Positions 44,497-63,152 of a DNA stretch of 64,000 bases are shown here, one piece after another (the stretch's first letter is position 1; each line of letters begins with the position of its first letter). Source of the DNA: Desulfosudaceae bacterium (GTDB lineage Bacteria; Desulfobacterota; Desulfobacteria; Desulfobacterales; Desulfosudaceae); assembly GCA_963674745.2 (NCBI GenBank), contig CAXXDV010000001.1:1440001-1504000 (forward strand). The letters run 5' to 3'. The notes under the pieces are model-generated. The model was not told the origin of the DNA. It ran no database searches and worked only from the letters and a program-made list of their open reading frames with translations. A program made the translations under genes and the position numbers.

Positions 44497-44512
44497 ATTT
44501 TTGGCGCTTAAC

Positions 44513-44728
44513 GAGTCTGTAGGAAAAGTCTATTTTCGATAAATTTTATCTTTTTTCAGAAAAACACCTTCGTAGAATATATTTTATACTAAAACATAAA
44601 ATCCTTGCAAACCATCTATTTTAGATGGCTTCACAGAGATCATACAAAATCTTATATAACTTTCAGTTTTTCAAAAATTGGCGACAAAACCCTATGTTTT
44701 ACTCAAATTTTACTTTTTCTACAGCCTC
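44513..44728. mobile_element. 216-bp attC-associated MITE-like element, copy A
   Basis: TIRs GAGTCTGTAGGAAAAGT / ACTTTTTCTACAGCCTC; flanks AAC..ATC; 2 substitutions vs other copies. Confidence 0.8.
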
Positions 44729-44848
44729 ATCGTCGGAAGCCAGAGGCAGCCAGGGCTTTCTCGGACTGCCTTAATGATGATTAATGTTCATTTCCCCCAG
44801 GTTGCTCAAAATCCGACTGCCCTGGCTGTCCTTTCTGAGCTTCCTGGT

Positions 44849-45558
44849 GTGTGCCGGGCACGGCACATGTTCTTAAAAGTGAGCCAAGGCTATCATATAT
44901 TTGATAATTTTGGCAAGTCTTAGACCCAGCCTGATGGAGGCGAAGGGTGTAGCGGTAGTGCAACGGGGTGCCAGGGACGGTGCTTCGGGAGGAAGCCGCC
45001 CTGCTGCGGCAGGGTACCGCGAAGGTACGGGATGACGCACAGGAATCGAGTATAAGGCGCGCACGCCGGGACGAGCCTGCACCACAAGGCAAAGTCCTCT
45101 ATCCATCTTAAGGCGTGTCCGTAAACTTGGCATTTACGTACCGAAAGACACGTGCTTACCCCGGGAGATCTCTCCTGTGCCGTACAACGGCTGAGGGTCG
45201 GGTAACCGGCCCTGACCGCAGGGGAGAAGTCAGCAGAAGGCATAGTAGCCGGCGGAAACGAGCCGGGCCTCCCTTAAGCGGGAGAAGTATACCCGGAGGA
45301 CTCACCCCGGTGAAGGCCGGAACGGTGCCCGGACCGAATGGCACGGGTAAATGGTGGTGGCAAGTAAGGGAGTATCTCTTACGGGGATAATGCGGCAGCT
45401 GCCGAAATTCACGTAGCGAGCTTTCTCTGAAAACCCGGTGGAACTGGTGGGATAACTCACAGCCGGTTTCATCAGTACCAGCCGAACCGCCTTGGTACGT
45501 GATCCGTATGCCAGGTGGTGTGGGAGGGGGTAGCCGTGAGGCTACTCCCTATCCCAAT
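44849..45558 (+). mobile_element. ORF-less group IIC-attC intron, copy 2 (710 nt)
   Basis: About 8 substitutions vs copy 1; splits GT|TAAGCGG core. Confidence 0.92.
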
Positions 45559-46187
45559 TAAGCGGCATGTGGCTTTGGTGGTACGGGTACGCCCAGATGT
45601 CGTGCAGCTATTCGTGCCAAGCGACCGATGTTTTGGTTCGACGATAAGGAGACTTCCCGCAGCAGGGCTGTTGCAGTCTCCGAATTCCCAGAATGGTGAA
45701 GAATAGCAGCGAGAGAGACCCTCCTTCGGGGTGGTGTGAAGCAATCAAGGAGCCCAAGATTCCAGCGCTCAATGATCGAATGACGATCAGATAAATCGGA
45801 AAGGAATGGAAGGACGTTATTCACCAGGGAGGATTCTATCTCTTCCACAGCCTGTTCGAAACTGGACTCAGAGAGTGTCCACCAGTGATCGGTGCCATGC
45901 GGTTCAAGTACTCCAATTCGTGCACGGATCTCACATTCGGGCTCCGCGACAAACTCTGGTGATGCATCTGCGCCTTTTAAAGCCAGTGCAACTTCCGGGA
46001 TATAGACACCGATATTTATCGTGCACCTACCAGGAGGCCTTCTGCTGAGCTGCAGCTCGATTACATGAACGAGTTTCGCAGGAAGCGCGCGGTTGTAGGT
46101 GCGCCCTTTTCTGACAAACCCGTTACTTTGGAAGGTCCGCCCAAGCCGAGTCTGAAGCCGAGTTGCTATCTGTTGATGAGAACCCAT
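45558..46187 (-). CDS. DUF4304-like cassette protein
   Basis: GFVRKGRTY..VIELQLS..CTINIGVYIP..RIG..WW pattern; GC-richer than neighbours. Confidence 0.65.
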   Translation of the reverse strand: MGSHQQIATRLQTRLGRTFQSNGFVRKGRTYNRALPAKLVHVIELQLSRRPPGRCTINIGVYIPEVALALKGADASPEFVAEPECEIRARIGVLEPHGTDHWWTLSESSFEQAVEEIESSLVNNVLPFLSDLSDRHSIIERWNLGLLDCFTPPRRRVSLAAILHHSGNSETATALLREVSLSSNQNIGRLARIAARHLGVPVPPKPHAA

Positions 46188-46343
46188 ATTTGTTCTGATT
46201 CCAACTCCTTCAGCCGCTTAACGTCCGCCACCACCGGCGAGCAGGGGATGCGGACTTCGCTAAAGTGAGTTCAACTCTAAATTACGCCAAAGCTAAAAAC
46301 AGCCCGCCCCTGCGAGTCAGCGTGGGTGGCGTTGTTAGAAACA

Positions 46344-46934
46344 TTATTTAAATCCTAATACCAAAACAACAAATTCCTTGTGATCTTCAAGCAGTTCTAT
46401 GAATGGAATAATATTTTGATCCTCGAATTTAAAAGGTAACCGGCGTTCGTAATTATTTTTTCTTGGAATTTCCATTGTTATACTTAGGAGCGTTGAATTT
46501 AATGGTTTATAAACCATGTCTGGCAAATTGATAGTTACTGAACTTTCAGCCAAATTAATCACTTTTGCTGTTTCCCAATTTATTAAAAACTCGGTACCAT
46601 AATTAAAACCTTTTGGAACATGAATATCTGTACTGTCGGCTGCAAAAACTGCGTATCCTAGGGGGTATTTATTTTTCAACTCATTTTCTTGTATTTCTTT
46701 ACGCGAAAGGTCTTGCTGGAAGTAATTGTTGATTGTTATTTGATTAGCTGTGATTCCGCCTTGTTGTTCTTTTGAGTTCACAATATTCTCAGCAATGAAA
46801 GCTTTAGGTTCTTTCATAGAGACTGTAGAATTATTCTCGCTCTTATTGGGCATAATATGCCAGCCATAGCCAGCCAGGACACCACCAAGAAGGATCAATA
46901 ACCCGCCAATTATTATGTAAGCCCAAGCATGCAT
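46344..46934 (-). CDS. Cassette protein with N-terminal TM anchor
   Basis: Fills cassette between attCs. Confidence 0.7.
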   Translation of the reverse strand: MHAWAYIIIGGLLILLGGVLAGYGWHIMPNKSENNSTVSMKEPKAFIAENIVNSKEQQGGITANQITINNYFQQDLSRKEIQENELKNKYPLGYAVFAADSTDIHVPKGFNYGTEFLINWETAKVINLAESSVTINLPDMVYKPLNSTLLSITMEIPRKNNYERRLPFKFEDQNIIPFIELLEDHKEFVVLVLGFK

Positions 46935-46962
46935 GATATTTTTATCCTACTCCGGTTTCTAA

Positions 46963-47770
46963 CGTCTGCAGCCAAAGTAGCCAGGGCTTCCAGTGACTGC
47001 CTTTAAGATGGTTGATGTTCAATTTCCCCCGAATGTTCAAAAACCGAATGCCCTGGCTATCATTTGGGCTGCTTGGTTAAGTGCCCGCATTATTCTGAAA
47101 GACTTTAACGACAGCATGGGCAAATAAATTAAATTATTTTTTTTCTTTTTACGCCTTGTCCATCATGAACCTATGAAAACGGGCCGGTCTCTTTTCATCC
47201 GGACAAATATGGCGCATTATCATTCGGCAGCGCCAGTTCGAGATTACAATTTATCTTTACTGGACAAAAATATCAACTTGGTGACAATTACAATTTTGGC
47301 AACGAATATCGATTTCAGCCAAAATTCTTTTTTTATTTGTTTCCCGTACAGATTCAGTGCACTTAACGTCTGCAGCCAAAGTAGCCAGGGCTTCCAGTGA
47401 CTGACTTTAAGGTGGTTGATGTTCAATTTCCCCCGAATGATCAAAACCCTAATGCCCTGGCTATCATTTGGGCTGCTTGGTTAAGTGCCCGTATCATTCA
47501 GAAAGGCTTTAACGACAGCATGGACAAAATAATAAAATGATTTTTTCTTTTTACGACTTGCCCATCATGAACCTATGAAAACGGGCAGGTCACTTTTCAT
47601 CCGGACAAATAAAGGCGCATTATCATCTGGCCGCGCCAGTTCAAAAATACAATTTATCGTTACTGACCGAAAAATTCAACTTGGTGACAATTACCATTTT
47701 GGCAACGAATATCGTTTTCAGCCAAAATTCATTTTTTTATTTTTTCCCCGTAAAGAATTTGTGCACTTAA
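46963..47770 (-). repeat. Gene-less ~404-bp cassette, copies 1-2 (46963-47366, 47367-47770)
   Basis: Body bounded by GTTAAGTGC..GCACTTAAC with near-identical attC; no conserved long ORF. Confidence 0.85.
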
Positions 47771-47819
47771 CGTCCGCCACCACCGGCGAGCAGGGTTTGC
47801 GGACTTTTTAAGGGTTAGT

Positions 47820-48407
47820 TCAACACCACACTATGCTAAAACTAAGGCAGGCCGCCCCTGCGAGTCCGTGTGAGTGGCGTTGTTGTGCAGCCGCATTAAC
47901 TTTTTTAAAAATTATACTATAGATTTCTATACCAATCGATTTGGCTTGGCTTTGTATGCTCTCTTTAATATTTTCGTACATATGATTTGAATAGTTGCAA
48001 TCGCTTTCCTGTCCCTCAGCGATTTGTGCAATCTTATCAGTTTCAATGTTCTTTAGCGCCTTTTGAAATTTATCTGAGAGACTATCTAAAACTATTTTTA
48101 TGTCTTTATCTCGAGTGGCATAATAAAAAGCCTTTGGCTCTTGGATTTTCCAGAGAATAGAAGCAGTATATTCAGGAAAACTGTTTAATTTTATCGGTAT
48201 TTGTTCAATTCTGCATACTTTAAATTCATGAACGTTTTCGGCAAAAGGTAATTTAAAATGAAGCCCGGGTTTAACAGGGCCTCTAACTATTTCTCCCTTT
48301 TGAGTAATGATAGCTTCACTACCTTCCATCACAGTGTAAACCGGTGAACCTGACCCACAAGCATAAAGAGTTAAGCACGGAATTAAGATTAATAATATTT
48401 TTCGCAT
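47820..48407 (-). CDS. SPFH/HflC-like domain lipoprotein (cassette)
   Basis: LYAC lipobox-like; YTVMEGSEAIITQKGEIV..PGLHFKLPF; reads into attC. Confidence 0.65.
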   Translation of the reverse strand: MRKILLILIPCLTLYACGSGSPVYTVMEGSEAIITQKGEIVRGPVKPGLHFKLPFAENVHEFKVCRIEQIPIKLNSFPEYTASILWKIQEPKAFYYATRDKDIKIVLDSLSDKFQKALKNIETDKIAQIAEGQESDCNYSNHMYENIKESIQSQAKSIGIEIYSIIFKKVNAAAQQRHSHGLAGAACLSFSIVWC

Positions 48408-48544
48408 AGAATACCGTTTTATGCTGCACAACGTCCGCCACCACCTGCGAGCAGGGAATGCGGTCTTCGCTAAAGTGAGTTTAACACCAAACTACGCCAA
48501 AGCCAAAAACAGCCCACCCCTGCGAGTCTGTGTGAGTGGCGTTG

Positions 48545-48973
48545 TTATACCTTTTCTCTTTTTTTCTTTAAAGTCGCTAATGAATTCACTATTGCTGCTA
48601 CAAGAAAGACGCCGCTTAGAAACAGCAATATTGGACATGAAATCATGACGAATTTCTCAGCAGGTGAATTGGGTACGACAGAAATGGAGGAAATTACAAG
48701 AAAGGGAATAAAACAAAGGAAGAAACCCGCCCAAAAGGAATGCTGCTTATGTTTCCCTGATTCCATATATTAAACCTTTTCAAATGTATAAAACATTCAT
48801 CCAAAACAAGATAACATTAAAACAACCCCATGACACGCAAAACCACCAATCAGGAATTTAATGGCGCTTGGCCTTTTCTGATCATTTATTTGTTCTAAAA
48901 GGACTTCTGCAATTCCAATAAATTCTAAAACTATTCCACAGACAGTCAGGATTATAACAAAAGGTATATCCAT
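48545..48973 (-). pseudogene. Disrupted membrane-protein cassette gene
   Basis: ATG 48973 (MDIPFVII..) is in frame with ORF 48545..48766 but interrupted by TGA (48797-48799) and TAA (48770-48772). Confidence 0.55.
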
Positions 48974-48993
48974 ATTCTTTTAGGTCGGTATAA

Positions 48994-49399
48994 CGTTTGC
49001 AGCCAAAGTAGCCAGGGCTTCCAGTGACTGACTTTAAGGTGGTTGACGTTCAATTTCCCCCGAATGTTCAAAACCCGAATGCCCTGGCTATCATTTGGGC
49101 TGCTTGGTTAAGTGCCCGCATTATTCAGAAAGACTTTAACGACAGCATGGGCAAATAAAATAAAATGATATTTTTCTTTTTACGCCTTGTCCATCATGAA
49201 CTTATGAAAACGGGTAGGTCTCTTTTCATCCGGACAAATAAAGGCGCATTATCATTTGGCCACGCCAGTTCGAAATTACAATTTATCTTTACTGGACAAA
49301 AATATCAACTTGGTGACAATTACCATTTTGGCAACGAATGGCGATTTCAGCCAAAATTCTTTTTTTTATTTTTTCCACGTACAGATTTAGTGCACTTAA
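48994..49399 (-). repeat. Gene-less cassette copy 3
   Basis: Homologous to 46963-47366. Confidence 0.85.
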
Positions 49400-49511
49400 C
49401 GTCCACCGTCACTTGGGAGCAGGGGAAACGTGACTTTTGCAACGCCACGTTAACACCGAACCAGAATACATTAAAAGCAGCGCGCCCCTGCGAGTCAAGT
49501 GCATGGTGTTG

Positions 49512-49904
49512 TTAGGCAGCATTTCCTTTTTTAGAAGCCAAAACTCCGAGTCCGCCGATTAAGGCTACCAGACTCCAAACATAAGGCGCTGGAGTTTCCC
49601 ACATGACATTGCTGCCCCAGAGGCCGAGCCCTATTCCAAGGCAAGCAAAGCCTGCACTCATACCTGTGGCAACAACTGCCATCGCGACATGGCCTGGTCT
49701 GATAGATGCGTACACATACATAATGATAATGGCAGCAACGGATACTGAACCCACATGCCACGAGAAGTGATGTAACCAGATTACTTCATTAGGTATATCG
49801 GTCATGGAGAGGGGCGGTAGCACCATCGGTGCGCCAAGAAACTCATGTCCAACAACGCCAGCGAATGATAGTGCTGCTGCAATGCGAAAAAACCAGAATG
49901 ACAT
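49512..49904 (-). CDS. Four-TM cassette membrane protein
   Basis: AGGAG RBS; stop in R'' box. Confidence 0.75.
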   Translation of the reverse strand: MSFWFFRIAAALSFAGVVGHEFLGAPMVLPPLSMTDIPNEVIWLHHFSWHVGSVSVAAIIIMYVYASIRPGHVAMAVVATGMSAGFACLGIGLGLWGSNVMWETPAPYVWSLVALIGGLGVLASKKGNAA

Positions 49905-49934
49905 ATTACATACTCCTGCTGATTAATGCCTAAC

Positions 49935-50150
49935 GAGTCTGTAGGAAAAGTCTATTTTCGATAAATTTTATCTTTTTTCAGAAAAACACCTTCGTAGAAT
50001 ATATTTTATACTAAAACATAAAATCCTTGCAAACCATCTATTTTAGATGGCTTCACAGAGATCATACAAAATCTTATATAACTTTCAGGTTTTCAAAAAT
50101 TGGCGGCAAAACCCTATGTTTTACTCAAATTTTACTTTTTCTACAGCCTC
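49935..50150. mobile_element. 216-bp MITE-like element, copy B
   Basis: Same TIRs; AAC on both sides at attC R'. Confidence 0.85.
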
Positions 50151-50265
50151 AACGTCCGCCACCACCGGCGAGCAGGGTTTGCGGACTTCTTTAAATGTCA
50201 GTTCAACACCACACTATGCCAAAACTAAGGCAGGGCGCCCCTGCGAGTCTGTGTGAGTGGCGTTG

Positions 50266-50601
50266 TTATAATCCATTTGTATTTATCATTTTTAAGCCCC
50301 CTACAATAAAAAGGATAAACAAAGAAGAAAATAGGGCCAAATAAAAAAATTGGTATCCTCTTAATATTTTGCAATATTTCAAAAGAGTAAGATTGTCTAT
50401 ATCAGTATATTGCTTTTTCCAAATGAATTTATGAAGTTTGTAAATAGTAGGCAGGGAATTGAACATAATATATATCTGCGGGCTCCCAATTGAAACCCAA
50501 GTATCATCATGTGACTGCCTCAGAATTGTGATTGTTTTCCATCTGAAGTATTCACCAAACAATAAAATAACTATCAAAATTATTATGATCAGATCTATCA
50601 T
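50266..50601 (-). CDS. Small two-TM cassette protein
   Basis: Fills cassette. Confidence 0.65.
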   Translation of the reverse strand: MIDLIIIILIVILLFGEYFRWKTITILRQSHDDTWVSIGSPQIYIMFNSLPTIYKLHKFIWKKQYTDIDNLTLLKYCKILRGYQFFYLALFSSLFILFIVGGLKMINTNGL

Positions 50602-50746
50602 TGATTTGGATTATAACGGCTGCCGCCAATGGGAGCCAGGGCTTCCACTGACTTGCCTTAATATTGGTTAAAGTTTGTTTTCCCCCGAATGGTCAAAATC
50701 CGGGTGCCCTGGCTCTCCTTTGGGCGGCATGGTTATGCGGGTTTTT

Positions 50747-51061
50747 TTATTCACCATTTTTGATTGCCTGCTTAATAATTGGAGCGACTGTATCTGGGCT
50801 TATCCTCCGGTCTTTGCAATATTTAGACTGCAACCAGACTGATAATTGCTTCTGTCCTTTACTTGCATTGCAACCTCGACAGCAAAGAACAATATTTTCT
50901 CTTGTAATAATTTTCGCATCATTGATTATATGTTCCCAACTTGCAGCAGATTTTGCAGATATCTTTGCTGGGGTAAATTCAACGCCGCAATAAACACACT
51001 TTTTATCCCTTTCCCTTACTTCCTTTTCAAGCCACTCTGGAATATTCCAATTATTTGCCAT
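50747..51061 (-). CDS. HNH endonuclease (cassette)
   Basis: VRERDKKCVYCG..WEHII..NIVLCCRGCNASKG. Confidence 0.88.
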   Translation of the reverse strand: MANNWNIPEWLEKEVRERDKKCVYCGVEFTPAKISAKSAASWEHIINDAKIITRENIVLCCRGCNASKGQKQLSVWLQSKYCKDRRISPDTVAPIIKQAIKNGE

Positions 51062-51218
51062 GAGAGATCGATGTATTGTTACGCATAACGTCTTCAGCCA
51101 AAGGGCGCCAGGGCTTCCTCCGACTGACTTAAAGATGGTTAAAATTTCAACTCAGCATGGCTGTTCAAAACCCGGGTGCCCTGGCGATCCTATTGCGCTG
51201 AATTGTTCGGTGCCGATT

Positions 51219-51629
51219 TTAGTTTCCGAAAAACAACTCTTTTGTCTCATAAAGCTTAGAACTATGTTTCCATCCAGACTCATGAGGTGGATCAGGGAAA
51301 GGGGCCTTTGCATAACCACAAGATTCCTTGAAATTAAATACAGCATGTGGAACTTGATTGATCAATAAGGCTGCTGCAGAAAAATCCCTCGTCCATATAA
51401 TTTTAATCATGGATGGTTTATCTCGGTCTATTACATCCTTAACATTGTATATATGTAGAGCATCTACGAAAAATTGACCAGAGAGAGAATAATCTCGCGC
51501 ATAAAAATAGCCTGTCTCACCATCATCTTCAAAGACAACTCCACGAATCCCATCAGATGTATCCGATTCAAGGACGATTTCTTCCCCGACCACGATTTCT
51601 TCTTCTACACCCAAAAATGGTGGCTTCAT
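51219..51629 (-). CDS. DUF2251-like cassette protein
   Basis: VVFEDDGETGYFYA..DALHIYNV..HAVFNF. Confidence 0.7.
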   Translation of the reverse strand: MKPPFLGVEEEIVVGEEIVLESDTSDGIRGVVFEDDGETGYFYARDYSLSGQFFVDALHIYNVKDVIDRDKPSMIKIIWTRDFSAAALLINQVPHAVFNFKESCGYAKAPFPDPPHESGWKHSSKLYETKELFFGN

Positions 51630-51644
51630 ATTTTATGCACCGAA

Positions 51645-52049
51645 CGTCTGCAGCCAAAGTAGCCAGGGCTTCCAGTGACTGACTTTAAGGTGGTTGATGT
51701 TCAATTTCCCCCGAATGTTCAAAAGCCGAATGCCCTGGCTATCATTTGGGCTGCTTGGTTAAGTGCCCGCATTATTCAGAAAGACTTTAACGACAGCATG
51801 GGCAAATAAATAAAATTAATTTTTTTCTTTTTACGCCTTGTCCATCATGAACTTATAAAAACGGGCAGGTCTCTTTTCATCCGGACAAATAAAGGCGCAT
51901 TATCATCTGGCCGCGCCAGTTCGAAATTACAATTTATCTTTACTGGACAAAAATATCAACTTGGTGACAATTATAATTTTGGCAACGAATGTCGAATTCA
52001 GCCAAAATTCTTTTTTTATTTTTTTCTCGTACAAATTCAGTGCACTTAA
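51645..52049 (-). repeat. Gene-less cassette copy 4
   Basis: Homologous to 46963-47366. Confidence 0.85.
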
Positions 52050-52050
52050 C

Positions 52051-52923
52051 GAGTCTGTAGGAAAAGTCTATTTTCGATAAATTTTATCTTTTTTCAGAAA
52101 AACACCTTCGTAGAATATATTTTATACTAAAACATAAAATCCTTGCAAACCATCTATTTTAGATGGCTTCACAGAGATCATACAAAATCTTATATAACTT
52201 TCAGGTTTTCAAAAATTGGCGGCAAAACCCTATGTTTTACTCAAATTTTACTTTTTCTACAGCCTCAACGAGTCTGTAGGAAAAGTCTATTTTCGATAAA
52301 TTTTATCTTTTTTCAGAAAAACACCTTCGTAGAATATATTTTATACTAAAACATAAAATCCTTGCAAACCATCTATTTTAGATGGCTTCACAGAGATCAT
52401 ACAAAATCTTATATAACTTTCAGGTTTTCAAAAATTGGCGGCAAAACCCTATGTTTTACTCAAATTTTACTTTTTCTACAGCCTCAACGAGTCTGTAGGA
52501 AAAGTCTATTTTCGATAAATTTTATCTTTTTTCAGAAAAACACCTTCGTAGAATATATTTTATACTAAAACATAAAATCCTTGCAAACCATCTATTTTAG
52601 ATGGCTTCACAGAGATCATACAAAATCTTATATAACTTTCAGGTTTTCAAAAATTGGCGGCAAAACCCTATGTTTTACTCAAATTTTACTTTTTCTACAG
52701 CCTCAACGAGTCTGTAGGAAAAGTCTATTTTCGATAAATTTTATCTTTTTTCAGAAAAACACCTTCGTAGAATATATTTTATACTAAAACATAAAATCCT
52801 TGCAAACCATCTATTTTAGATGGCTTCACAGAGATCATACAAAATCTTATATAACTTTCAGGTTTTCAAAAATTGGCGGCAAAACCCTATGTTTTACTCA
52901 AATTTTACTTTTTCTACAGCCTC
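52051..52923. mobile_element. Four tandem copies (C-F) of the 216-bp MITE-like element
   Basis: 52051-52266, 52270-52485, 52489-52704, 52708-52923; 219-bp period separated by AAC. Confidence 0.88.
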
Positions 52924-52965
52924 AACGTCTGAAGCCAGGGGCAGCCAGGGCTACTCCTGACCAGA

Positions 52966-53391
52966 TTATGGTTTTAAATTTTCGACTCCCCTCGGTTGCT
53001 CAACAAAGCCTGCCCTGGCTGTCCCTTTGCGCTTCTTGGTTATAAGGCTGATTATTATGGATAACGTGAATGTAATAACTGTGGCACATAATGCCAAAAA
53101 ACACACAAAGAAAAAATATGAATCCCAAAAAGGAGTTCCCAGAATTGGCAACCAAGTTAAAGCACAGGAATAAAACACAATTAAAGATATCATAAAATAT
53201 TTTGTATAATTTGATTTATGAAGATGCTTTAAACTCCATAATATGCCGAATACAAAGCCGATAATTCCAAAGAAGAAAATTGCCAAAATATAATGGTTTC
53301 CACTTTTCAAAACCGCGGATGACAAACCAGATAATGCGTTTAATTCATAATAAATAAATGGAATATATATTGTTGCCAGAAACCAACGCAT
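52966..53391 (-). CDS. Cassette membrane protein
   Basis: Start MRWFLATIY after R'; reads into attC. Confidence 0.65.
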   Translation of the reverse strand: MRWFLATIYIPFIYYELNALSGLSSAVLKSGNHYILAIFFFGIIGFVFGILWSLKHLHKSNYTKYFMISLIVFYSCALTWLPILGTPFWDSYFFFVCFLALCATVITFTLSIIISLITKKRKGTARAGFVEQPRGVENLKP

Positions 53392-53520
53392 TTCGAAAAG
53401 CCTTATAACGTCCGCCACCACCGGCGCGCAGGGTTTGCGGACTTCGCTAAAGTAAGTTAAACACCAAATTACGCCAAAACAAAGGCCGCCCGCCCCTGCG
53501 AGTCCGGGTGAGTGGCGTTG

Positions 53521-53811
53521 TTATATTCCAGTTTTTATTTTTATGAAAATAATTGCTGCCAGCAGCCCTATCATAGCACCAAAAATTATCGACAAATACC
53601 ATTTTGAAATATTCGTGAATTTTATAATTAGTGCCGGAAAGATCGAAATCAGGATTATTTTGAATAGACCTGAAATTAAATAAGGCCAATCCATAAAACC
53701 GTAATGCTTGAGCATAGTCAAAAAGAAAATGGAAAATAAACAAATTGTGCTTGCAAAATAAGCAAGTAATGCTTGTTTTGAATGAGCTAAAAATTTGCTT
53801 TGATCATCCAT
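53521..53811 (-). CDS. Three-TM cassette protein
   Basis: Start MDDQSKF; stop in R''. Confidence 0.65.
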   Translation of the reverse strand: MDDQSKFLAHSKQALLAYFASTICLFSIFFLTMLKHYGFMDWPYLISGLFKIILISIFPALIIKFTNISKWYLSIIFGAMIGLLAAIIFIKIKTGI

Positions 53812-53957
53812 AAATTTTCTCTTGTGGAATATAACGTCCGCCACCACCGGCGAGCAGGGTTTGCGGACTTCGCTAAAGTAAGTTTAACACCAAATTACAC
53901 CAAAACTAAGGCAGCACGCCCCTGCGAGTCCGGGTGGGTGGCGTTGTTAGGAGGCGT

Positions 53958-54398
53958 CTATCCCGGCGCCTCATATTCCAAATTTTTTAAATGTATAGGT
54001 AATGGTGTCGGTTTTGGCAATTCAATATTACCATATATTGTCTTTAATGGTTTATTGGGGTTGAGAAAGTGAAAAAAGAATACCCAGCGACACCCACTAT
54101 CATCAAGGTGGCGTTCATCGTAAGGGACTTGCCAGTTCTCTTTTGATACCCCTTTTTCTTCTTGTGTTATCGAAGCCCAGTCAGAAGGCTGAAGCGGCTG
54201 TTGTGAGAGAATCTCAATTAGGAACAGATTATCAAAATGTTCCGTAACGTGTCTTTTGGCTTCATCAAGTTCTGCGCCTTCCAACTCTTCTCCCCACTGT
54301 AATATCAAAGTCTTTTGAAAGGTAGCCTCATTTGCTTGGTATTTATGGACACCAATGACCTGAAGAGGCATAGTTTTGGGCTTTTTCTTGAAGAGCAT
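53958..54398 (-). CDS. Cassette hypothetical protein
   Basis: Start MLFKKKPK inside cassette; the ORF-track start lies in the attC. Confidence 0.7.
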   Translation of the reverse strand: MLFKKKPKTMPLQVIGVHKYQANEATFQKTLILQWGEELEGAELDEAKRHVTEHFDNLFLIEILSQQPLQPSDWASITQEEKGVSKENWQVPYDERHLDDSGCRWVFFFHFLNPNKPLKTIYGNIELPKPTPLPIHLKNLEYEAPG

Positions 54399-54531
54399 TA
54401 CTTCGTAAAGCCTCCTAACGTCCGCCACCACCGGCGAGCAGGGCTTGCGGACTTCGCTAAAGTAAAGTTCAACTCCAAATAACGCCAAAGCCAAAACAGC
54501 CCGCCCCTGCGAGTCTGTGTGAGTGGCGTTG

Positions 54532-55008
54532 TTATATTTTGCCTGTATTAATTTTATCTATAGCACGATCAAATTTGACCACCAATTCATTTAAAGTATC
54601 AACTGGACTCTTAGTAAAGGCTTTATCAGTAGGGTATAATGGCGCTACCCATTCGCATTCTTTGCAATTTTCGGCTATTGCAATCATTATGGTCAAAGAC
54701 CCTTTCCAAGATTCAATTATTTCATGCGGGTCACAGTTTGGAAAAACTTGCATCAATTTTTCCATCATTTTCTTTGTTGGGCTTTGAAGCAAATTTATCA
54801 CTTCAAGAGAATATTTAATCACATCTTTCGAGGCAGACGTCCTTGGCATTCCGACACAAATCGAAAAGCGCCAAAACCATTCCGCACATTCTTCTGAAAT
54901 ATCCGTGAAATATTCAGAATAGCTCAACAGGTCAAGTGAAGATGCATATTCGGGAAGAACGTGCATTTCAAATATGATTAATCTTGGATATTCTTTATAT
55001 TGCCACAT
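54532..55008 (-). CDS. Cassette hypothetical protein (duplicate of 59855..60331)
   Basis: Identical translation. Confidence 0.75.
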   Translation of the reverse strand: MWQYKEYPRLIIFEMHVLPEYASSLDLLSYSEYFTDISEECAEWFWRFSICVGMPRTSASKDVIKYSLEVINLLQSPTKKMMEKLMQVFPNCDPHEIIESWKGSLTIMIAIAENCKECEWVAPLYPTDKAFTKSPVDTLNELVVKFDRAIDKINTGKI

Positions 55009-55137
55009 ATCTTATAAAATATAACGTCCGCCACCACCGGCGAGCAGGGGATGCGGACTTCTTAAATGTTCGTTTAACACCACACTATGCTAAAACCCAA
55101 AACCGACCGCCCCTGCGAGTCCGGGTGAGTGGCGTTG

Positions 55138-55518
55138 TTATATGCCATTATTCTTTCTACTTATTAGTTCATATGTAGAATATTTAAATCTAATATATAT
55201 GGTAGCAAAACCAAATAAACCCAAAAGAGAAATTGATACGTATTTATATAAATTATAATTGATCCCAAAGCTTGTCAGATCGGAAATAACTCCCAAAATA
55301 ATCCATATAAAAGCAAGAACAAAAAGTGATAACATGAAAATGGCTCTTCTTCTGGCATTTATATTTGGAATTAAAATAGAATTGCATAATGGACATTCAA
55401 TTTCAGATAAATAAAAAAAATTACGACGGTTTTTTCTTTGCTTCATCGCTTCGGAGTTCAGATCGAATTCTCCACTACAATCTGGACATTGAATGTTTAG
55501 TAATCTTTTTTTGAACAT
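55138..55518 (-). CDS. Zn-ribbon (CPDC/CPLC) + two-TM cassette protein (duplicate of 56135..56515)
   Basis: Identical translation. Confidence 0.75.
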   Translation of the reverse strand: MFKKRLLNIQCPDCSGEFDLNSEAMKQRKNRRNFFYLSEIECPLCNSILIPNINARRRAIFMLSLFVLAFIWIILGVISDLTSFGINYNLYKYVSISLLGLFGFATIYIRFKYSTYELISRKNNGI

Positions 55519-55681
55519 GTGAAATTATTTTTGTGCATTTAAGTTCAAAGCATATAACGGCGGCCGCCAATGGGAGCCAGGGCTTCCACTGACCTGCCTT
55601 AAAGATGGTTTATGTTCAATTCCCCCGAAATTTCAAAAACCGAATGCCCTGGCTCTCCTTTGAGCGGCCTTGTTATATGAA

Positions 55682-56002
55682 TTACGCCACTATTGAAAAC
55701 AACAAACCAATTACTATAATCAAAAGTCCATATTCTTTTGCCCGAACTCTTGTCATAAATTTTATCTTTGATTCATCCAACTTGTTTCTGAGTATTATTG
55801 AGATAAATCCAAAAATGATCCAAAAAGGTCCAATATACCCAAAGCTTCCAGAGTGAGGGATTGTATTTACAGTGATATAGGACGCAAGAATGAGAATAAA
55901 CAACCCCAAAACTATAAAAAATTTATTATTTTTCCATAGCCCCAAACCCCAGAATAAGAATGAAAACAAAAACGGTATTGATAAATGATTAATATAGTTC
56001 AT
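55682..56002 (-). CDS. Small multi-TM cassette protein
   Basis: Fills cassette. Confidence 0.65.
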   Translation of the reverse strand: MNYINHLSIPFLFSFLFWGLGLWKNNKFFIVLGLFILILASYITVNTIPHSGSFGYIGPFWIIFGFISIILRNKLDESKIKFMTRVRAKEYGLLIIVIGLLFSIVA

Positions 56003-56134
56003 TCAATGATAATTCATATAACGTCCGCCACCACCGGCGAGCAGGGGATGCGGACTTCTTAAATGTTCGTTTAACACCACACTATGCTAAAACCCAAAAC
56101 CGACCGCCCCTGCGAGTCCGGGTGAGTGGCGTTG

Positions 56135-56515
56135 TTATATGCCATTATTCTTTCTACTTATTAGTTCATATGTAGAATATTTAAATCTAATATATATGGT
56201 AGCAAAACCAAATAAACCCAAAAGAGAAATTGATACGTATTTATATAAATTATAATTGATCCCAAAGCTTGTCAGATCGGAAATAACTCCCAAAATAATC
56301 CATATAAAAGCAAGAACAAAAAGTGATAACATGAAAATGGCTCTTCTTCTGGCATTTATATTTGGAATTAAAATAGAATTGCATAATGGACATTCAATTT
56401 CAGATAAATAAAAAAAATTACGACGGTTTTTTCTTTGCTTCATCGCTTCGGAGTTCAGATCGAATTCTCCACTACAATCTGGACATTGAATGTTTAGTAA
56501 TCTTTTTTTGAACAT
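56135..56515 (-). CDS. Zn-ribbon + two-TM cassette protein (second copy)
   Basis: Identical to 55138..55518. Confidence 0.75.
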   Translation of the reverse strand: MFKKRLLNIQCPDCSGEFDLNSEAMKQRKNRRNFFYLSEIECPLCNSILIPNINARRRAIFMLSLFVLAFIWIILGVISDLTSFGINYNLYKYVSISLLGLFGFATIYIRFKYSTYELISRKNNGI

Positions 56516-56666
56516 GTGAAATTATTTTTGTGCATTTAAGTTCAAAGCATATAACGTCCGCCACCACCGGCGAGCAGGGTTTTCGGACTTCTTAAAGGTT
56601 AGTTCAACACCACATTATGTTTAAACCAAGGCAGCCCGCCCCTGCGAGTCTGTGTGAGTGGCGTTG

Positions 56667-57047
56667 TTATGCAACTTGTATTATTGTTTTTCTAATTCCT
56701 GTTTTTGGGTCCCAGAAAACATAAAAGGACGTATCATCATGAAAATAGCCCGTGTTAACTGGAAGGTCAATTTGCCCGACAAAGACCATTGGCTGTCCTT
56801 TGGCGAATTGCCAATCGGAACCTTGAATCCAATTTGGTGGGGACGATATTGAAATGAACTGTTCCTTCATGACTTTCCGCAATGATGTGGCGATATCTTC
56901 GTCTCCTTCACGTGCAGAACTTATCAATTTCAAGAAAAACTCCTCCGATTCAGATGAAGTAAGTGGATCGATATTGTATTCACTGCATATCGGTAAAATT
57001 TCATCTAAATCATTACTTGAAATTTTGCTTTCGAAGGTATCTTCCAC
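56667..57047 (-). CDS. Cassette hypothetical protein (YwqG/DUF1963-like C-terminal motif)
   Basis: PPNWIQ..PMVFVGQID..FYVF..IIQ; GGAG RBS. Confidence 0.65.
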   Translation of the reverse strand: MEDTFESKISSNDLDEILPICSEYNIDPLTSSESEEFFLKLISSAREGDEDIATSLRKVMKEQFISISSPPNWIQGSDWQFAKGQPMVFVGQIDLPVNTGYFHDDTSFYVFWDPKTGIRKTIIQVA

Positions 57048-57184
57048 ATTTTCTCCGTTGCATAACGTCCGCCACCACCGGCGAGCAGGGTTTGCGGACT
57101 TTGCTAAAGTGAGTTTAACACCAAACTATGCCAGGACAAAAGCAGCCCGCCCCTGCGAGTCCGGGTGAGTGGCATTGTTATCTT

Positions 57185-57673
57185 TCAGTTTTTTAATATT
57201 TTTGATTCTATTAATTCATTTTTTAAAATCATAAAAATTCCTGCTACTACCGTAAAACCATGTGCAAATAAATTACTCCAATAGAAACCTCCTCCCGAGC
57301 GAATTGGTAAAAGGAATAAATCTCTGATTAAGGAGGACGTTCCACTTGTGAAAAAGTATATGCCTAAAAGAATAAGCCAAAAGGATAGATTAGAGTAATT
57401 GGGGTCGCTTTCATCTGTCTTGGGTGTTACTTTAGAATCTCCGGAAATAAAATTTGATATTTTTTCGGCCTTCGAAATTAAGAGGATTGCAACAATAATA
57501 TAAAATATCGGGAGAAAAGAAGCCCAAATATTATATAGCACAGGATTCTTGATAAACTTTTCCTGATTGATAGCAAATGAAGAGATTAATCCAGAAAATG
57601 CATATGGTATTTGAACTAAAAGATAAAGGCCGTAAATACGTGTTGCAATTTCAATGGCTTTTTTTGTGCTCAT
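57185..57673 (-). CDS. Four-TM cassette protein
   Basis: Start MSTKKAI after AAGGA; the ORF-track start lies in the attC. Confidence 0.7.
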   Translation of the reverse strand: MSTKKAIEIATRIYGLYLLVQIPYAFSGLISSFAINQEKFIKNPVLYNIWASFLPIFYIIVAILLISKAEKISNFISGDSKVTPKTDESDPNYSNLSFWLILLGIYFFTSGTSSLIRDLFLLPIRSGGGFYWSNLFAHGFTVVAGIFMILKNELIESKILKN

Positions 57674-57848
57674 AGAGTTCCTTGAAGAAAGATAACGGTT
57701 GCAGCCAAAGGGCGCCAGGGCTTCTTCTGACTGTCTTAAAAATGGTTTATGTTCAAGTTCCATCGAAAATTCAAAACCCGTGTGCCCTGGCGGTCCTTTT
57801 GGGCTGCATGGTTATACGAATAATTATAGATTGGTTCTATGACTTTCA

Positions 57849-58118
57849 TTATTTAAATAAGCCAGATAATCTTGTAATCAAAGAAAGGCTTACAAGTATC
57901 AACAATACTACTCCCCATGTTCTAAACCAAAATGTATTTTCCCCGATAAAATATTTTTTGTTTTCTTCTGATTTCCCAAGTGCTGCACTCTTTTCCATGC
58001 GCCAATAAATGTTTCCAATTAACTTGATAAACTTGATCAATGATTTAGGTTTAAATATCAGATAAAGGCTTATAATTAACACGATCGTATCATTGATAAT
58101 AATAAATATATCTATCAT
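57849..58118 (-). CDS. Small two-TM cassette protein
   Basis: Fills cassette. Confidence 0.6.
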   Translation of the reverse strand: MIDIFIIINDTIVLIISLYLIFKPKSLIKFIKLIGNIYWRMEKSAALGKSEENKKYFIGENTFWFRTWGVVLLILVSLSLITRLSGLFK

Positions 58119-58266
58119 AAAGGTTTCTTTTTCTCTTTCTTGTTCAACGTATAACGTCTACCGTCACTTGGGAGCAGGGGAAAAGTGACTTTTGCAAAGC
58201 CACGTAAACACCGAACCACGATACTGTAAAAGCAGCACGCCCCTGCGAGTCAAGTGCATGGTATTG

Positions 58267-58767
58267 TTAGCCTTTACTATTTATATTATTAACGAAAATT
58301 CCAAATATTTTTGTTTCAGTTCCTATGAGATCTGGGATTGATGAGTAATTCATTTCTTTTGTCCCATTACTCTTTGTACAGTACTTTTCATTTAACATGA
58401 AAGATATAACCTTTGGCAAAGAATCTACATGTACAACTCTTTGATAAAAACTGATTGGGTCAGAAATTGTAAAATTCATATCAGCTCGAAATGGTTTTGC
58501 TCTCGGAGGGCACCCAAGAAAATTTATTTGAACGATGATTTGTCCGCTTGGATATCTGACGACCTGATCGGCATTACCTAGCTTAAAATGATATCCTTGG
58601 GTCTTTATTGGGCCTTTTATTATTTTTCCAAAACGAGTAACAATAATTTGCTCACCTGGTTTAATTACGTACACAGATTCATATGCAAATTGGGCCGCCA
58701 AACCAATAATTGCCAATATAATTATTGGGGCTTTTACTTTTTGTGTATATTTGTCCGGTAGCTGCAT
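58267..58767 (-). CDS. SPFH/HflC-like domain protein (cassette)
   Basis: SVYVIKPGEQIIVTRFGKII..GYHFKL..FTISDPISFY. Confidence 0.7.
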   Translation of the reverse strand: MQLPDKYTQKVKAPIIILAIIGLAAQFAYESVYVIKPGEQIIVTRFGKIIKGPIKTQGYHFKLGNADQVVRYPSGQIIVQINFLGCPPRAKPFRADMNFTISDPISFYQRVVHVDSLPKVISFMLNEKYCTKSNGTKEMNYSSIPDLIGTETKIFGIFVNNINSKG

Positions 58768-58914
58768 TTTTATGTAAGGCTAACGTCGGCCGCCAATGGG
58801 AGCCAGGGCTTCCACTGTCTTGCCTTAAAAGTGATTAAAGTTCGTTTTCCTCCAAATGTTCAAAAACCGAATGCCCTGGCTCTCCTTTGGGCGGCCTTGT
58901 TCGCTGCAATATTT

Positions 58915-59319
58915 TTATTGATTGTTATTTAGTTTTTCAAGAGCTTCTGATACACGGGAATATCTTGGAATATTCATAGATTCCACAAGATTCTTCAGCT
59001 CTTCATTATTATCTGAGTATTCCCAATAATTTGAATTAAAACGTTTAAGTATTGTTTCGGCTGTTTTATAATCTCCGCTTTCTATTAATTTTTCGACATG
59101 CGACGTAACAGAAGTCACTAATTCTCGATGAAAATATCTCTCGCTTGCTTCCAGCTTCTCATTTACTTGATTAGTCCAGAAAATACATGTGATTGCAAGT
59201 ATGGTGAAAGCAAAATAACGACAAAATTTAGCCCATTTCTTAAACTTAATTATATCCGAAACTATAAAGAGGATAAACGCTATTAAAAATGGGAATGGAG
59301 ACGATATAAATTCTTGCAT
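58915..59319 (-). CDS. Two-TM cassette protein
   Basis: Fills cassette. Confidence 0.7.
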   Translation of the reverse strand: MQEFISSPFPFLIAFILFIVSDIIKFKKWAKFCRYFAFTILAITCIFWTNQVNEKLEASERYFHRELVTSVTSHVEKLIESGDYKTAETILKRFNSNYWEYSDNNEELKNLVESMNIPRYSRVSEALEKLNNNQ

Positions 59320-59335
59320 AGCTTATTCCAGCGAA

Positions 59336-59741
59336 CGTCTGCAGCCAAAGTAGCCAGGGCTTCCAGTGACTGCCTTTAAGATGGTTGATGTTCAATTTCC
59401 CCCGAAAGTGCAAAAGCCGAATGCCCTGGCTATCATTTGGGCTGCTTGGTTAAGTGCCCGCATTATTGAGAAAGACTTTAACGACAGCATGGGCAAATAA
59501 AATAAAATGATATTTTTCTTTTTACGCCTTGTCCATCATGAACTTATGAAATCGGGTAGGTCTCTTTTCATCCGGACAAATAAAGGCGCATTATCATTTG
59601 GCCGCGCCAGTTCGAAATTACAATTTATCTTTACTGGCCGAAAAATTCAACTTGGTGACAATTACCATTTTGGCAATGAATGTCGTTTTCAGCCAAAATT
59701 CTTTTTTTTATTTTTTTCCCGTACAGATTCAGTGCACTTAA
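59336..59741 (-). repeat. Gene-less cassette copy 5
   Basis: Homologous to 46963-47366. Confidence 0.85.
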
Positions 59742-59854
59742 CGTCCGCCACCACCGGCGAGCAGGGCTTGCGGACTTCGCTAAAGTAAAGTTCAACTCCA
59801 AATAACGCCAAAGCCAAAACAGCCCGCCCCTGCGAGTCTGTGTGAGTGGCGTTG

Positions 59855-60331
59855 TTATATTTTGCCTGTATTAATTTTATCTATAGCACGATCAAATTTG
59901 ACCACCAATTCATTTAAAGTATCAACTGGACTCTTAGTAAAGGCTTTATCAGTAGGGTATAATGGCGCTACCCATTCGCATTCTTTGCAATTTTCGGCTA
60001 TTGCAATCATTATGGTCAAAGACCCTTTCCAAGATTCAATTATTTCATGCGGGTCACAGTTTGGAAAAACTTGCATCAATTTTTCCATCATTTTCTTTGT
60101 TGGGCTTTGAAGCAAATTTATCACTTCAAGAGAATATTTAATCACATCTTTCGAGGCAGACGTCCTTGGCATTCCGACACAAATCGAAAAGCGCCAAAAC
60201 CATTCCGCACATTCTTCTGAAATATCCGTGAAATATTCAGAATAGCTCAACAGGTCAAGTGAAGATGCATATTCGGGAAGAACGTGCATTTCAAATATGA
60301 TTAATCTTGGATATTCTTTATATTGCCACAT
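59855..60331 (-). CDS. Cassette hypothetical protein (second copy)
   Basis: Identical to 54532..55008. Confidence 0.75.
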   Translation of the reverse strand: MWQYKEYPRLIIFEMHVLPEYASSLDLLSYSEYFTDISEECAEWFWRFSICVGMPRTSASKDVIKYSLEVINLLQSPTKKMMEKLMQVFPNCDPHEIIESWKGSLTIMIAIAENCKECEWVAPLYPTDKAFTKSPVDTLNELVVKFDRAIDKINTGKI

Positions 60332-60347
60332 ATCTTATAAAATATAA

Positions 60348-61153
60348 CGTCTGCAGCCAAAGTAGCCAGGGCTTCCAGTGACTGACTTTAAGGTGGTTGA
60401 TGTTCAATTTCCCCCGAATGTTCAAAAGCCGAATGCCCTGGCTATCATTTGGGCTGCTTGGTTAAGTGCCCGCATTATTGAGAAAGACTTTAACGACAGC
60501 ATGGGCAAATAAATTAAAATGATATTTTTCTTTTTACGCCTTGTCCATCATGAACTTATGAAAACGGGTAGGTCTCTTTTCATCCGGACAAATAAAGGCG
60601 CAAAATCAAACAGTCCCGCCAGATCAAAATACAGCTTATCTTTACTGATTGAAAATATCAATCTGGTGACAATTTCCATAGTGGCAACGAAGATCATTTT
60701 TCGTCAAAATTCTTTTTTTATTTTTTCCCGTACAGATTAAGTGCACTTAACGTCTGCAGCCAAAGTAGCCAGGGCTTCCAGTGACTGACTTTAAGGTGGT
60801 TGATGTTCAATTTCCCCCGAATGTTCAAAAGCCGAATGCCCTGGCTATCATTTGGGCTGCTTGGTTAAGTGCCCGCATTATTCAGAAAGACTTAAACGAC
60901 AGCATGGGCAAATAAAATAAAATGATATTTTTCTTTTTACGCCTTGTCCATCATGAACTTATGAAAACGGGTAGGTCTCTTTTCATCCGGACAAATAAAG
61001 GCTCAAAATCAAACAGTCCCGCCAGATCAAAATACAGCTTATCTTTACTGATTGAAAATATCAATCTGGTGACAATTTCCATAGTGGCAACGAAGATCAT
61101 TTTTCGTCAAAATTCTTTTTTTATTTTTTCCCGTACAGATTAAGTGCACTTAA
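60348..61153 (-). repeat. Gene-less cassette copies 6-7 (divergent variant; 60348-60750, 60751-61153)
   Basis: Same ends and attC; middle ~110 bp diverged from copies 1-5. Confidence 0.85.
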
Positions 61154-61277
61154 CGTCTGAAGCCAATGGCAGCCAGGGCTTCCACCAGCTTAGTTAAAGA
61201 TTTTGGTTATTCAATTCCCCCGACTTTTCAAAACCCGAGTGCCCTGGCTGTCCACTTGAGCTTCTTGGTTATGTTTC

Positions 61278-61658
61278 TTAATATTTTGATTTAATTGGAA
61301 ATTTAAAAGAAACTGTATTCGTATAATTTGCAAATTCTTCTTTATTTGCAATATATTTTTTAATATCATTTTTAGTTTTGAAAACTATAATATCGTTTTC
61401 ATGCTGAAAAGAATAATCAGCGGTAAGGTCATGAACACTTATAAGAAAGCACTGCTTATCCATATTCATTTTAGTCAGCAGTTCCTCGCCTAATGATTTC
61501 TTCTTAAATGCAATATAAGATCCACCGGTGCTGGTTTTCATTTTTACAAGGATAAGAGGCAAATCATGGCCTTTATCATTTTTGAGTCCATGACTGCATA
61601 CAAAAAACAATTCATTTCTTTTTTTAACAAAATTTTGAAAGATATCTTTTATCATCAT
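61278..61658 (-). CDS. Cassette hypothetical protein
   Basis: Fills cassette. Confidence 0.65.
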   Translation of the reverse strand: MMIKDIFQNFVKKRNELFFVCSHGLKNDKGHDLPLILVKMKTSTGGSYIAFKKKSLGEELLTKMNMDKQCFLISVHDLTADYSFQHENDIIVFKTKNDIKKYIANKEEFANYTNTVSFKFPIKSKY

Positions 61659-61782
61659 GAAACATAACGTCTCAAGCCAATGGCAGCCAGGGCTTCCACT
61701 GTCTTGGTTTATGATTTGGGTTGTTCAGTTCCCCCAATATTTCAAAACCCGAGTGCCCTGGCTGTCCACTTGAGCTTGATTG

Positions 61783-62802
61783 TTAGGCCTTCGAAGTTTT
61801 ATTAATTAAGATCAAAGTATTACACTTAGGGCATTTTTCCGGAATAAACCGTCTTAACAAAAATGATTTATTACAATTAGGACATTTTAATAAAGAAAAT
61901 CGAGCGATTAACCATAGTATTGGTAAAAGTAAAAATATAATACCAGCCATTACAGTGCCTATTGTGCTTGTTGGAGAAACAATCTTGCGCCCAAATAATA
62001 TAAATCCAAAAAATATTGCCACAAATAAAGCTGTTAGTAATTTATACAATGAGTATTTTTTTTTGAACTCTTTCAAAGCATTCACACTATCGGTTATTTT
62101 TGTTGATGCTACATTTTTCTTTTCAGTCACATTGATACTTTTAGGTTTTTCAGTGTCAGATAAACGAATAACCATTTTATGATGTTCGTGATACTTTAGA
62201 AATTTTTTAAGTGGGGTCAGCTCTTTAATTGGGTCTAAAAGATAAGGTCTTTGGCCAAAGTTGTCTTGATAGTCTGTTGTTTCACCCATCAGAACATGCT
62301 TTTTAAATAGGTTGATTTCCTCTGCAGTGATTACAAACGGCTCAAAAGGTCTTATTCTCATAATGTTGTCTAAAAGGCCCTGATGAGTAGAATTGCATTC
62401 TTCACAATGAATTTCCCAATATTTAGCGGAAATAAAATTATCATCTTTAAATACAAAACTCGTTGTAGCGTATTTTGTTTCATCCTCATTATTTATTTCT
62501 GGTGGGAATTCCGCTGCATGGTCGCAAAATTTATATATCCTGTGCCCCTGATGTTTAACCAAAAAAGCTTGGAATGCTTCAACTTCAAAGGTTAACATTT
62601 TAAAAGCTTCTAATCCTATATAAATAAATCCAAAATTCTTTTCCCAAGGACTTGTAGAATCTTTATCCCATTTTGAAGGGCAGGCCTCTTCATCTGTAGA
62701 TATGCTAGGATAGCCGATAAATCCAAAGTCCCCGACCTCAGGGCCTTCTTCAAGGCAGTCTAAACAAATTGCTCCAAAAAGTACCCCCATCATATCCTCC
62801 AA
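61783..62802 (-). CDS. Cassette protein with duplicated CxxC..HxxH module, two TM and C-terminal Zn ribbon
   Basis: CLDC..FLVKHQGH / CEEC..FLKYHEHH; CPNC..CPKC; GGAGG suggests start at MMGVLF. Confidence 0.7.
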   Translation of the reverse strand: MEDMMGVLFGAICLDCLEEGPEVGDFGFIGYPSISTDEEACPSKWDKDSTSPWEKNFGFIYIGLEAFKMLTFEVEAFQAFLVKHQGHRIYKFCDHAAEFPPEINNEDETKYATTSFVFKDDNFISAKYWEIHCEECNSTHQGLLDNIMRIRPFEPFVITAEEINLFKKHVLMGETTDYQDNFGQRPYLLDPIKELTPLKKFLKYHEHHKMVIRLSDTEKPKSINVTEKKNVASTKITDSVNALKEFKKKYSLYKLLTALFVAIFFGFILFGRKIVSPTSTIGTVMAGIIFLLLPILWLIARFSLLKCPNCNKSFLLRRFIPEKCPKCNTLILINKTSKA

Positions 62803-62818
62803 TATGTTTTTGCCTAAC

Positions 62819-63034
62819 GAGTCTGTAGGAAAAGTCTATTTTCGATAAATTTTATCTTTTTTCAGAAAAACACCTTCGTAGAATATATTTTATACTAAAA
62901 CATAAAATCCTTGCAAACCATCTATTTTAGATGGCTTCACAGAGATCATACAAAATCTTATATAACTTTCAGGTTTTCAAAAATTGGCGGCAAAACCCTA
63001 TGTTTTACTCAAATTTTACTTTTTCTACAGCCTC
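62819..63034. mobile_element. 216-bp MITE-like element, copy G
   Basis: Same TIRs; AAC flanks at attC R'. Confidence 0.85.
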
Positions 63035-63152
63035 AACGGCGGCCGCCAGTGGGCGCCAGGGCTTCCACTGACTTGCCTTAAAGATATTTAATATTCAATT
63101 TCCCTCGACTTTTCAAAAGCCGAGTGCCCTGGCGATCCATTGCGCGGCCTTG

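Follow-up and report, generated by a model that had tools for sequence, protein, structure and literature searches.

A 216-bp miniature element at the R′ crossover triplet of attC sites in a Desulfosudaceae genome, and its probable origin from an IS1182-family lineage

To our knowledge, only two kinds of element are thought to invade integron cassette arrays site-specifically: insertion sequences (ISs) of the IS1111-attC group and group IIC-attC introns. The former use a DEDD transposase with a seekRNA as its guide (PMC11187229). The introns are specific for the bottom strand of attC and bear outward promoters capable of driving the cassette that follows; like the IS1111-attC elements, they enter attC near its 5′ end and antisense to the cassettes (PMC3001079). 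IS1272, an IS1182-family element of Staphylococcus, is reported to target inverted-repeat or stem-loop structures, replacing its inverted-repeat target and leaving no duplication (PMC5678879). Here we describe a 216-bp element present in seven copies within a cassette array in a 64-kb stretch of a Desulfosudaceae bacterium genome (GCA_963674745.2, contig CAXXDV010000001.1, positions 1,440,001 to 1,504,000; this whole stretch is hereafter the window). In our view it is quite probably a miniature inverted-repeat transposable element (MITE) that lacks a transposase, having arisen by internal deletion within an IS1182-family lineage, and the DDE transposase of this lineage quite probably targets the GTT triplet in the R′ core of attC.

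A repeat search and a seven-way alignment locate seven near-identical 216-bp units in the window, with start-to-start spacings of 5422, 2116, 219, 219, 219, and 10,111. The alignment returns the same positions as an earlier note on this DNA, which had reported four loci (44513, 49935, 52051 with four copies, and 62819). It also bears out the note's description of 17-bp imperfect terminal inverted repeats, a single orientation, and AAC on both sides, with ATC in copy A. Of the 17 positions in the termini, GAGTCTGTAGGAAAAGT and ACTTTTTCTACAGCCTC, 15 are complementary. Six of the seven window copies are identical; the other, copy A, has two internal substitutions and is probably the oldest. Three more copies lie outside the window, at C1:1506717 (2.7 kb past the window end), C1:903006, and C1:2275089 (minus strand), all with TAAC/.../AACG junctions within attC sites (slashes mark points of insertion or crossover). 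The genome thus holds 10 copies at seven independent sites, nine of them identical. AAC stands on both sides of every copy except copy A, where the right-hand triplet is ATC, and all 10 have a single orientation relative to the attC site. The tandem period of 219 is the sum of the 216-bp element and the three bases of AAC.

The element has no transposase gene; its sole open reading frames (ORFs) are 35–56 aa long and extend beyond it. No Rfam family reached its threshold in a scan of the tandem region (best score 30.5 bits, against a threshold of 43 bits). RNA folds of both strands consist chiefly of pairing between the two termini (z = −4.2 and −3.6); we take no RNA function from them.

The window's plus strand is the bottom strand of attC, and the cassette ORFs lie on the minus strand, starting 16–30 nt to the left of AAC; start codons are likewise seen beside the insertion sites outside the window. 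Because these minus-strand ORFs begin just left of AAC, the interrupted triplet is the GTT of R′ (G/TTRRRY) and the attC body extends rightward: the element sits at R′, not at R″. Uninterrupted attC sites read TAAC/G with a single AAC. Among them are sites of cassettes paralogous to the one occupied by the tandem copies, in whose family the empty sites read GTGCACTTAAC/GTC. Since the empty paralogous sites carry one AAC, insertion duplicates 3 bp. The element contains no attC of its own, that is, no internal R″-L″...L′-R′ arrangement closed by AAC...GTT such as an integron cassette has, and its folds pair the termini.

The host genome (three contigs, 5.55 Mb, 99.96% completeness, GC ∼50%) has at least 142 attC sites recognizable by regular expression, in two sequence families and about nine clusters on both large contigs. 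Constrained DNA folds of the attC bodies in the window range from −16 to −28 kcal/mol. Three integron integrases score above the TIGR02249 cut-off (C3:2348261, C1:2117407, and C3:27977), none of them adjacent to the window array. The earlier note had seen the element in both attC families and nowhere else in the window, and this extends to the genome: six of the seven independent insertion sites fall in the 'GCCAGGGC' family and one in the 'CACCGGCGAGCAGGG' family, all 10 copies are at attC R′, and there is no non-attC copy. The seven sites are spread over four separate chromosomal attC clusters. With 7330 TAACG sites in the genome, the probability that all seven would fall at attC is about (142/7330)^7, or roughly 1e-12, which excludes chance placement.

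Related elements occur in other genomes. We scanned one genome per species (596 Gb) with the degenerate terminus GAGKCTGTAGRAAAAGT and obtained at least 121 matching stretches. In 72 of the 121 matches listed, AAC or GTT directly adjoins the terminus, where ∼3% would be expected by chance; we treat the remaining 49 mostly as chance matches, and by our own estimate a 17-mer with two twofold positions is expected a few hundred times in 596 Gb. Eighty-one loci with long flanks were examined (80 from the scan, plus L039), and among these we could delimit 23 complete elements, 17 of 98–335 bp and six of 1760–1842 bp. All 23 have YTAAC/.../AACN junctions, the right-hand sequence being AACG in 21. 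The six long elements come from one Nitrospirota metagenome-assembled genome (MAG; L072 and L118), Mangrovitalea sediminis (L082), Marinobacter algicola DG893 (L113), a betaproteobacterial MAG (L091), and a gammaproteobacterial MAG (L100). In M. algicola, one copy of the element and intI share a contig, 3 kb apart. Host labels of the lineage among the listed matches comprise Nitrospirota, Gamma- and Betaproteobacteria, Deltaproteobacteria/Thermodesulfobacteriota, Gemmatimonadota, Binatia, and Herpetosiphon, from both MAGs and isolates.

Twelve right flanks were inspected. Ten are bulged, attC-type hairpins of 55–147 nt, closed by AAC...GTT and followed by an RRRY-like continuation (GTTAGGC, GTTAGAT, and GTTATGC, for example), which is canonical attC architecture; the other two (L082 and L068) are unclear. 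At one locus in a Nitrospirota MAG (L041, 817–1250), two MITEs stand head to tail at a single attC. As the two are diverged, they would derive from separate insertions at the AAC beside the attC body, which suggests that the targeting determinant lies on that side. The left flank of this locus has TAAT in place of TAAC.

In a protein search of a plasmid collection, the closest relatives are 41%–44% identical and reside on Pseudoalteromonas and Catenovulum replicons. The Pseudoalteromonas relatives have termini beginning GAGGCTGTAGAAT; one (L171) is bounded at both ends as cGTT...GTTa, and for the other (L170) only the right end was found, followed by GTTa. Clinical plasmids in this collection yielded only IS1182 elements ∼25% identical.

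The long elements each encode a single protein of 509–539 aa, which matches Pfam DDE_Tnp_1_6, DUF772, and DDE_Tnp_1, all above cut-offs. Against the NCBIfam model of IS1182-family transposases (NF033551, cut-off 270), the L072 protein scores 275.5 bits and the L113 protein 268.3 bits, just below the cut-off. Residues D158, D327, and E492 (L113 numbering) are invariant in all six aligned proteins and, on the motifs, are the candidate catalytic triad. By these protein matches the full-length relatives are assigned to the IS1182 family, whose members, IS1272 included, they resemble in having one NF033551-matching DDE transposase, terminal inverted repeats, and a length of ∼1.8 kb. This agrees with the earlier note, which had likened the ends to IS1182/IS5-type termini and proposed a non-autonomous element. 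The relatives form two clades. In clade 1 (the Marinobacter/Nitrospirota type), the attC body lies next to the 5′ end of the transposase gene, which has the same direction as the cassettes, at seven of seven loci, an arrangement shared by all 21 copies in a Nitrospirota assembly, G104; in clade 2 (the L091 type), the arrangement is reversed at four of four loci. The right terminus of the MITE together with AAC is identical to the 5′ terminus of clade 1, a weak hint as to its ancestry.

The G104 element differs from the rest in its target. Its 21 identical copies all have GTT...GTT junctions and one orientation, and its transposase is 44% identical to that of Marinobacter. The copies lie within a short palindrome (GGGCTCGGC-GTT-ACTCGCCC and variants) that belongs to a ∼190-bp repeat scattered through the genome and is not an attC; an uninterrupted paralogue of the target has a single GTT. 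No integron-integrase match was found in G104 at E ≤ 1e-20, the completeness of this assembly not being stated. The core common to all targets is 5′-C/GTT/A-3′. The ∼190-bp repeat itself looks like a second MITE family, or one resembling repetitive extragenic palindromes (REP-like), that may act as a landing pad. Several of its copies (among loci L177–L199) end in inverted CTGCAATTCAGACAGTACGGGG / CCCCGTACTGTCTGAATTGCAG.

The earlier note had further proposed that the transposase recognizes the attC hairpin. Targeting of attC holds, whereas recognition of the hairpin as such goes beyond the evidence, as the 44%-identical relative uses a non-attC palindrome with a CGTTA core. The cue that the transposase reads may be a sequence, a cruciform, or a folded single strand.

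Taken together, the 216-bp unit is short, has terminal inverted repeats and no transposase gene, is flanked by a target-site duplication, and occurs in several copies at different sites, and autonomous elements with the same termini, 1760–1842 bp long and encoding a transposase, exist in other genomes. We favor DDE transposition as the mechanism that made the junctions because the termini, kept across phyla, bound a DDE transposase gene. A transposase of this lineage would target the GTT within the R′ core of attC (5′-C/GTT/A-3′ on the cassette strand), duplicating these 3 bp as it inserts the element in one orientation relative to the site. Supplied in trans, the enzyme may have spread the copies, and it would now be gone from the host genome or would never have been stable there. 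Were the targeting determinant on the attC-body side, re-insertion beside an existing copy would yield head-to-tail arrays. The four identical tandem copies could have arisen by repeated insertion or by unequal crossing-over.

Several results weigh against descent from an attC-targeting DDE lineage, or at least sit uneasily with it. Taken alone, the junctions do not tell whether DDE transposition duplicated 3 bp or IntI crossed over at G/TT, as GTT on both sides of the element matches either. In a hairpin test of the flanks elsewhere, the separation from controls is moderate: 20 of 41 flanks and 24 of 87 controls fold at −15 kcal/mol or below (P = 0.004, Mann-Whitney; two flanks that were too short were dropped, and L072 and L118 were set aside). 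A right-flank similarity test for neighboring arrays was negative (one of 19 loci, two of 38 controls) and is taken as uninformative. Clades 1 and 2 sit oppositely on the same asymmetric CGTTA core, and orientation is thus not uniform across the family.

The most serious difficulty concerns the autonomous partner, for which the earlier note had proposed the terminal repeats as a probe. None is found in the 99.96%-complete host genome: at up to three mismatches, the element termini do not occur elsewhere, since the ends of the 10 copies account for 20 of the 26 matches and the other six are at the level of a reversed-pattern control. The genome does have a resident IS1182-family element, in two 1783-bp copies on contig 3 (898420–900202 and 2545389–2547170; L161 and L162) that are 99.6% identical. 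Its ends are different (GGAAGGCT and AACAGGCTGTCC), it is without AAC flanks and lies away from attC sites, and its transposase is 29%–33% identical to the attC-type transposases; we do not think that it mobilizes the MITE. A search of 100 relatives with the element gave three weak matches and no parent. A metagenome scan with the left end and subterminal bases gave two MITE-like matches, one of them with both ends, and no transposase or parent. Set against this missing partner, the identity of nine of the 10 copies suggests that they spread recently.

The sole related MITE among the 100 relatives is at an attC in G037, from another family of the order. G032, from the same order, has a 33-nt stretch (L037, 1501–1533) that is 91% identical to MITE positions 19–51 and lies beside a gene start, without MITE termini; this interior match of 33–36 nt may represent a remnant or, alternatively, a regulatory motif that the two share. 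G092 has a 22-nt match to the element.

An alternative, raised in outline by the earlier note, is that the 219-bp GTT-bounded unit is an attC-less pseudo-cassette moved by IntI, which would cut at G/TT on both sides and re-insert the resulting circle at another R′. The genome has three integron integrases and no matching transposase; the junctions coincide with the crossover triplet, the copies share one orientation and form head-to-tail arrays, and nine of 10 are identical, all as this alternative would have it. The unit, however, contains no R″...R′ pair. Its two ends pair together, leaving AAC at either side instead of AAC and GTT. The same termini also bound elements that encode a transposase. 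Because the G104 copies duplicate GTT at a non-attC palindrome, in an assembly where IntI was not detected at the threshold given above, DDE transposition is favored over insertion by IntI, and we regard the pseudo-cassette, weakened by this 21-copy relative, as improbable.

Still less probable, in our view, is that the copies owe their number to cassette duplication, or to recombination among attC sites already bearing the element, and not to mobility of the element itself. The array does hold amplified cassette families, and the four tandem copies, being identical, could be expanded by unequal crossing-over. Against this, the seven sites have unrelated left flanks and right flanks of two attC families and lie in four separate clusters, and paralogous cassettes of the family hosting the tandem copies lack the element. 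The lack of long shared flanking homology refutes this explanation except for the tandem expansion.

We give almost no credence to descent from the RNA-guided IS1111-attC group with loss of everything but the ends and a guide RNA. Members of that group (ISPa21, ISPst6, and ISKpn4) do have inverted repeats and do target attC at one set position and in one orientation (PMC11187229, PMC3001079), but their DEDD/seekRNA enzyme is unrelated: the full-length relatives with the present termini all encode an IS1182-family DDE protein, and no RNA family in Rfam was matched. The known group also inserts near the 5′ end of attC, antisense to the cassettes (PMC3001079), whereas the present element is at the 3′ R′ core. 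We found no report of MITE derivatives of the IS1111-attC group. A single-strand element of the IS200/IS605 type was rejected, given the terminal inverted repeats and DDE relatives.

The preferred reading, a MITE of an IS1182-family lineage, can now be set beside the other described systems. IS1272 offers a family precedent for structured targets, inverted repeats or stem-loops (PMC5678879); unlike it, the present lineage inserts at GTT, duplicates the triplet, and leaves the site intact, its usual target being attC R′. Group IIC-attC introns are likewise attC-specific mobile elements, and their outward promoter is possibly paralleled by a promoter-like site in the MITE, but they are ∼2-kb retroelements with a ribozyme and a reverse transcriptase that insert near the other end of attC (PMC3001079). 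Integron-associated MITEs, both those flanking class 1 integrons and the TIMEs (miniature elements with inverted repeats, derived from Tn3), are also short, non-coding, and bounded by inverted repeats; they differ in that they flank and mobilize whole integrons or genes, and insertion into an attC core is not reported for them. Our literature search found no account of an IS1182-family element or a MITE inserting into attC, although ISfinder/TnPedia and most subscription papers were outside the search and a prior description is possible.

The lineage is set apart from both known attC-targeting kinds by its enzyme class, by where it inserts (the 3′ R′ crossover triplet), and by its MITE derivatives. 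It would represent a third, unrelated kind of attC invader, a DDE lineage with abundant miniature derivatives that enters at the crossover triplet itself. This raises the questions of how a DDE enzyme finds a structured recombination site in one orientation, whether an occupied attC recombines, and whether such elements affect how the cassette behind them is expressed and mobilized. For annotation, such elements split attC sites and can be mistaken for ORF-less cassettes.

Because the element end starts with GAG, the occupied attC keeps a near-consensus R′ (GTTGAGG compared with GTTRRRY). An occupied site would thus probably stay recombinogenic, and the MITE could then travel as the leading segment of the downstream cassette, carried by IntI. 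A larger scenario can be built on this, which we put forward tentatively and think more doubtful than not: that the DDE lineage is adapted to the integron, entering at the R′ GTT, rebuilding a working R′ with its GAG end (GTTGAG), and leading the next cassette as an IS or MITE that IntI carries between arrays, genomes, and phyla. If true, carriage by IntI would account for how a MITE lacking a transposase could recently have multiplied in a genome that has no partner for it, and the MITE could give an outward promoter 16–30 nt upstream of cassettes that are otherwise silent. In the MITE, the promoter-like site matches the consensus at nine of 12 positions; four such sites occur in the region, compared with 1.9 ± 1.4 in shuffles, in AT-rich DNA. 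That this site drives the cassette starting 16–30 nt beyond the element is conceivable as a hypothesis only. Coordinates of the element copies and associated features are given in the table.

Table. Copies of the 216-bp element in the window and the features around them
Feature	Position	Strand	Remarks
MITE copy A	44513..44728	+	AAC 44510–44512 on the left, ATC 44729–44731 on the right; two internal differences; 99% over 1–217
MITE copy B	49935..50150	+	Second attC family (GTCCGCCACCACCGGCGAGCAGGG); AAC 49932–49934 and 50151–50153
Cassette ORF downstream of copy B	49512–49904	−	Start 30 nt from the element
Four identical head-to-tail MITE copies	52051–52266, 52270–52485, 52489–52704, 52708–52923	+	Repeat search and alignment; 100%
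AAC triplets between and around the tandem copies	52048, 52267, 52486, 52705, 52924		
MITE copy D	62819..63034	+	AAC 62816–62818 and 63035–63037
Cassette ORF downstream of copy D	61783–62802	−	Start 16 nt from the element
Promoter-like site within the MITE (copy D)	62887..62916	−	TTGCAA, 18 nt, TAAAAT; points across the left end toward the downstream cassette
attC site hosting copy D	63035..63154	Shown as bottom strand	Begins with the right-hand AAC; hairpin of ∼120 nt closed by AAC...GTT
Matching attC bodies after other copies	A: 44729 to ∼44871; B: 50151 to ∼50267; C4: 52924 to ∼53041		attC repeat families

In the source run (X1), the MITE unitig is at a depth of 116 and the unique flank at 13, and the attC of copy D is at high sequencing depth, with loose ends at 63035 and 63154–63156. 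In contigs of three marine-sediment metagenome runs (X3–X5), the MITE is uncovered and no contig spans an empty site, and we draw nothing from that. In these runs the attC family of 63035–63156 reaches a summed contig depth of up to ∼12,000 and many different sequences abut both of its ends; parts of the two cassettes neighboring copy D are present at ≥99% identity.

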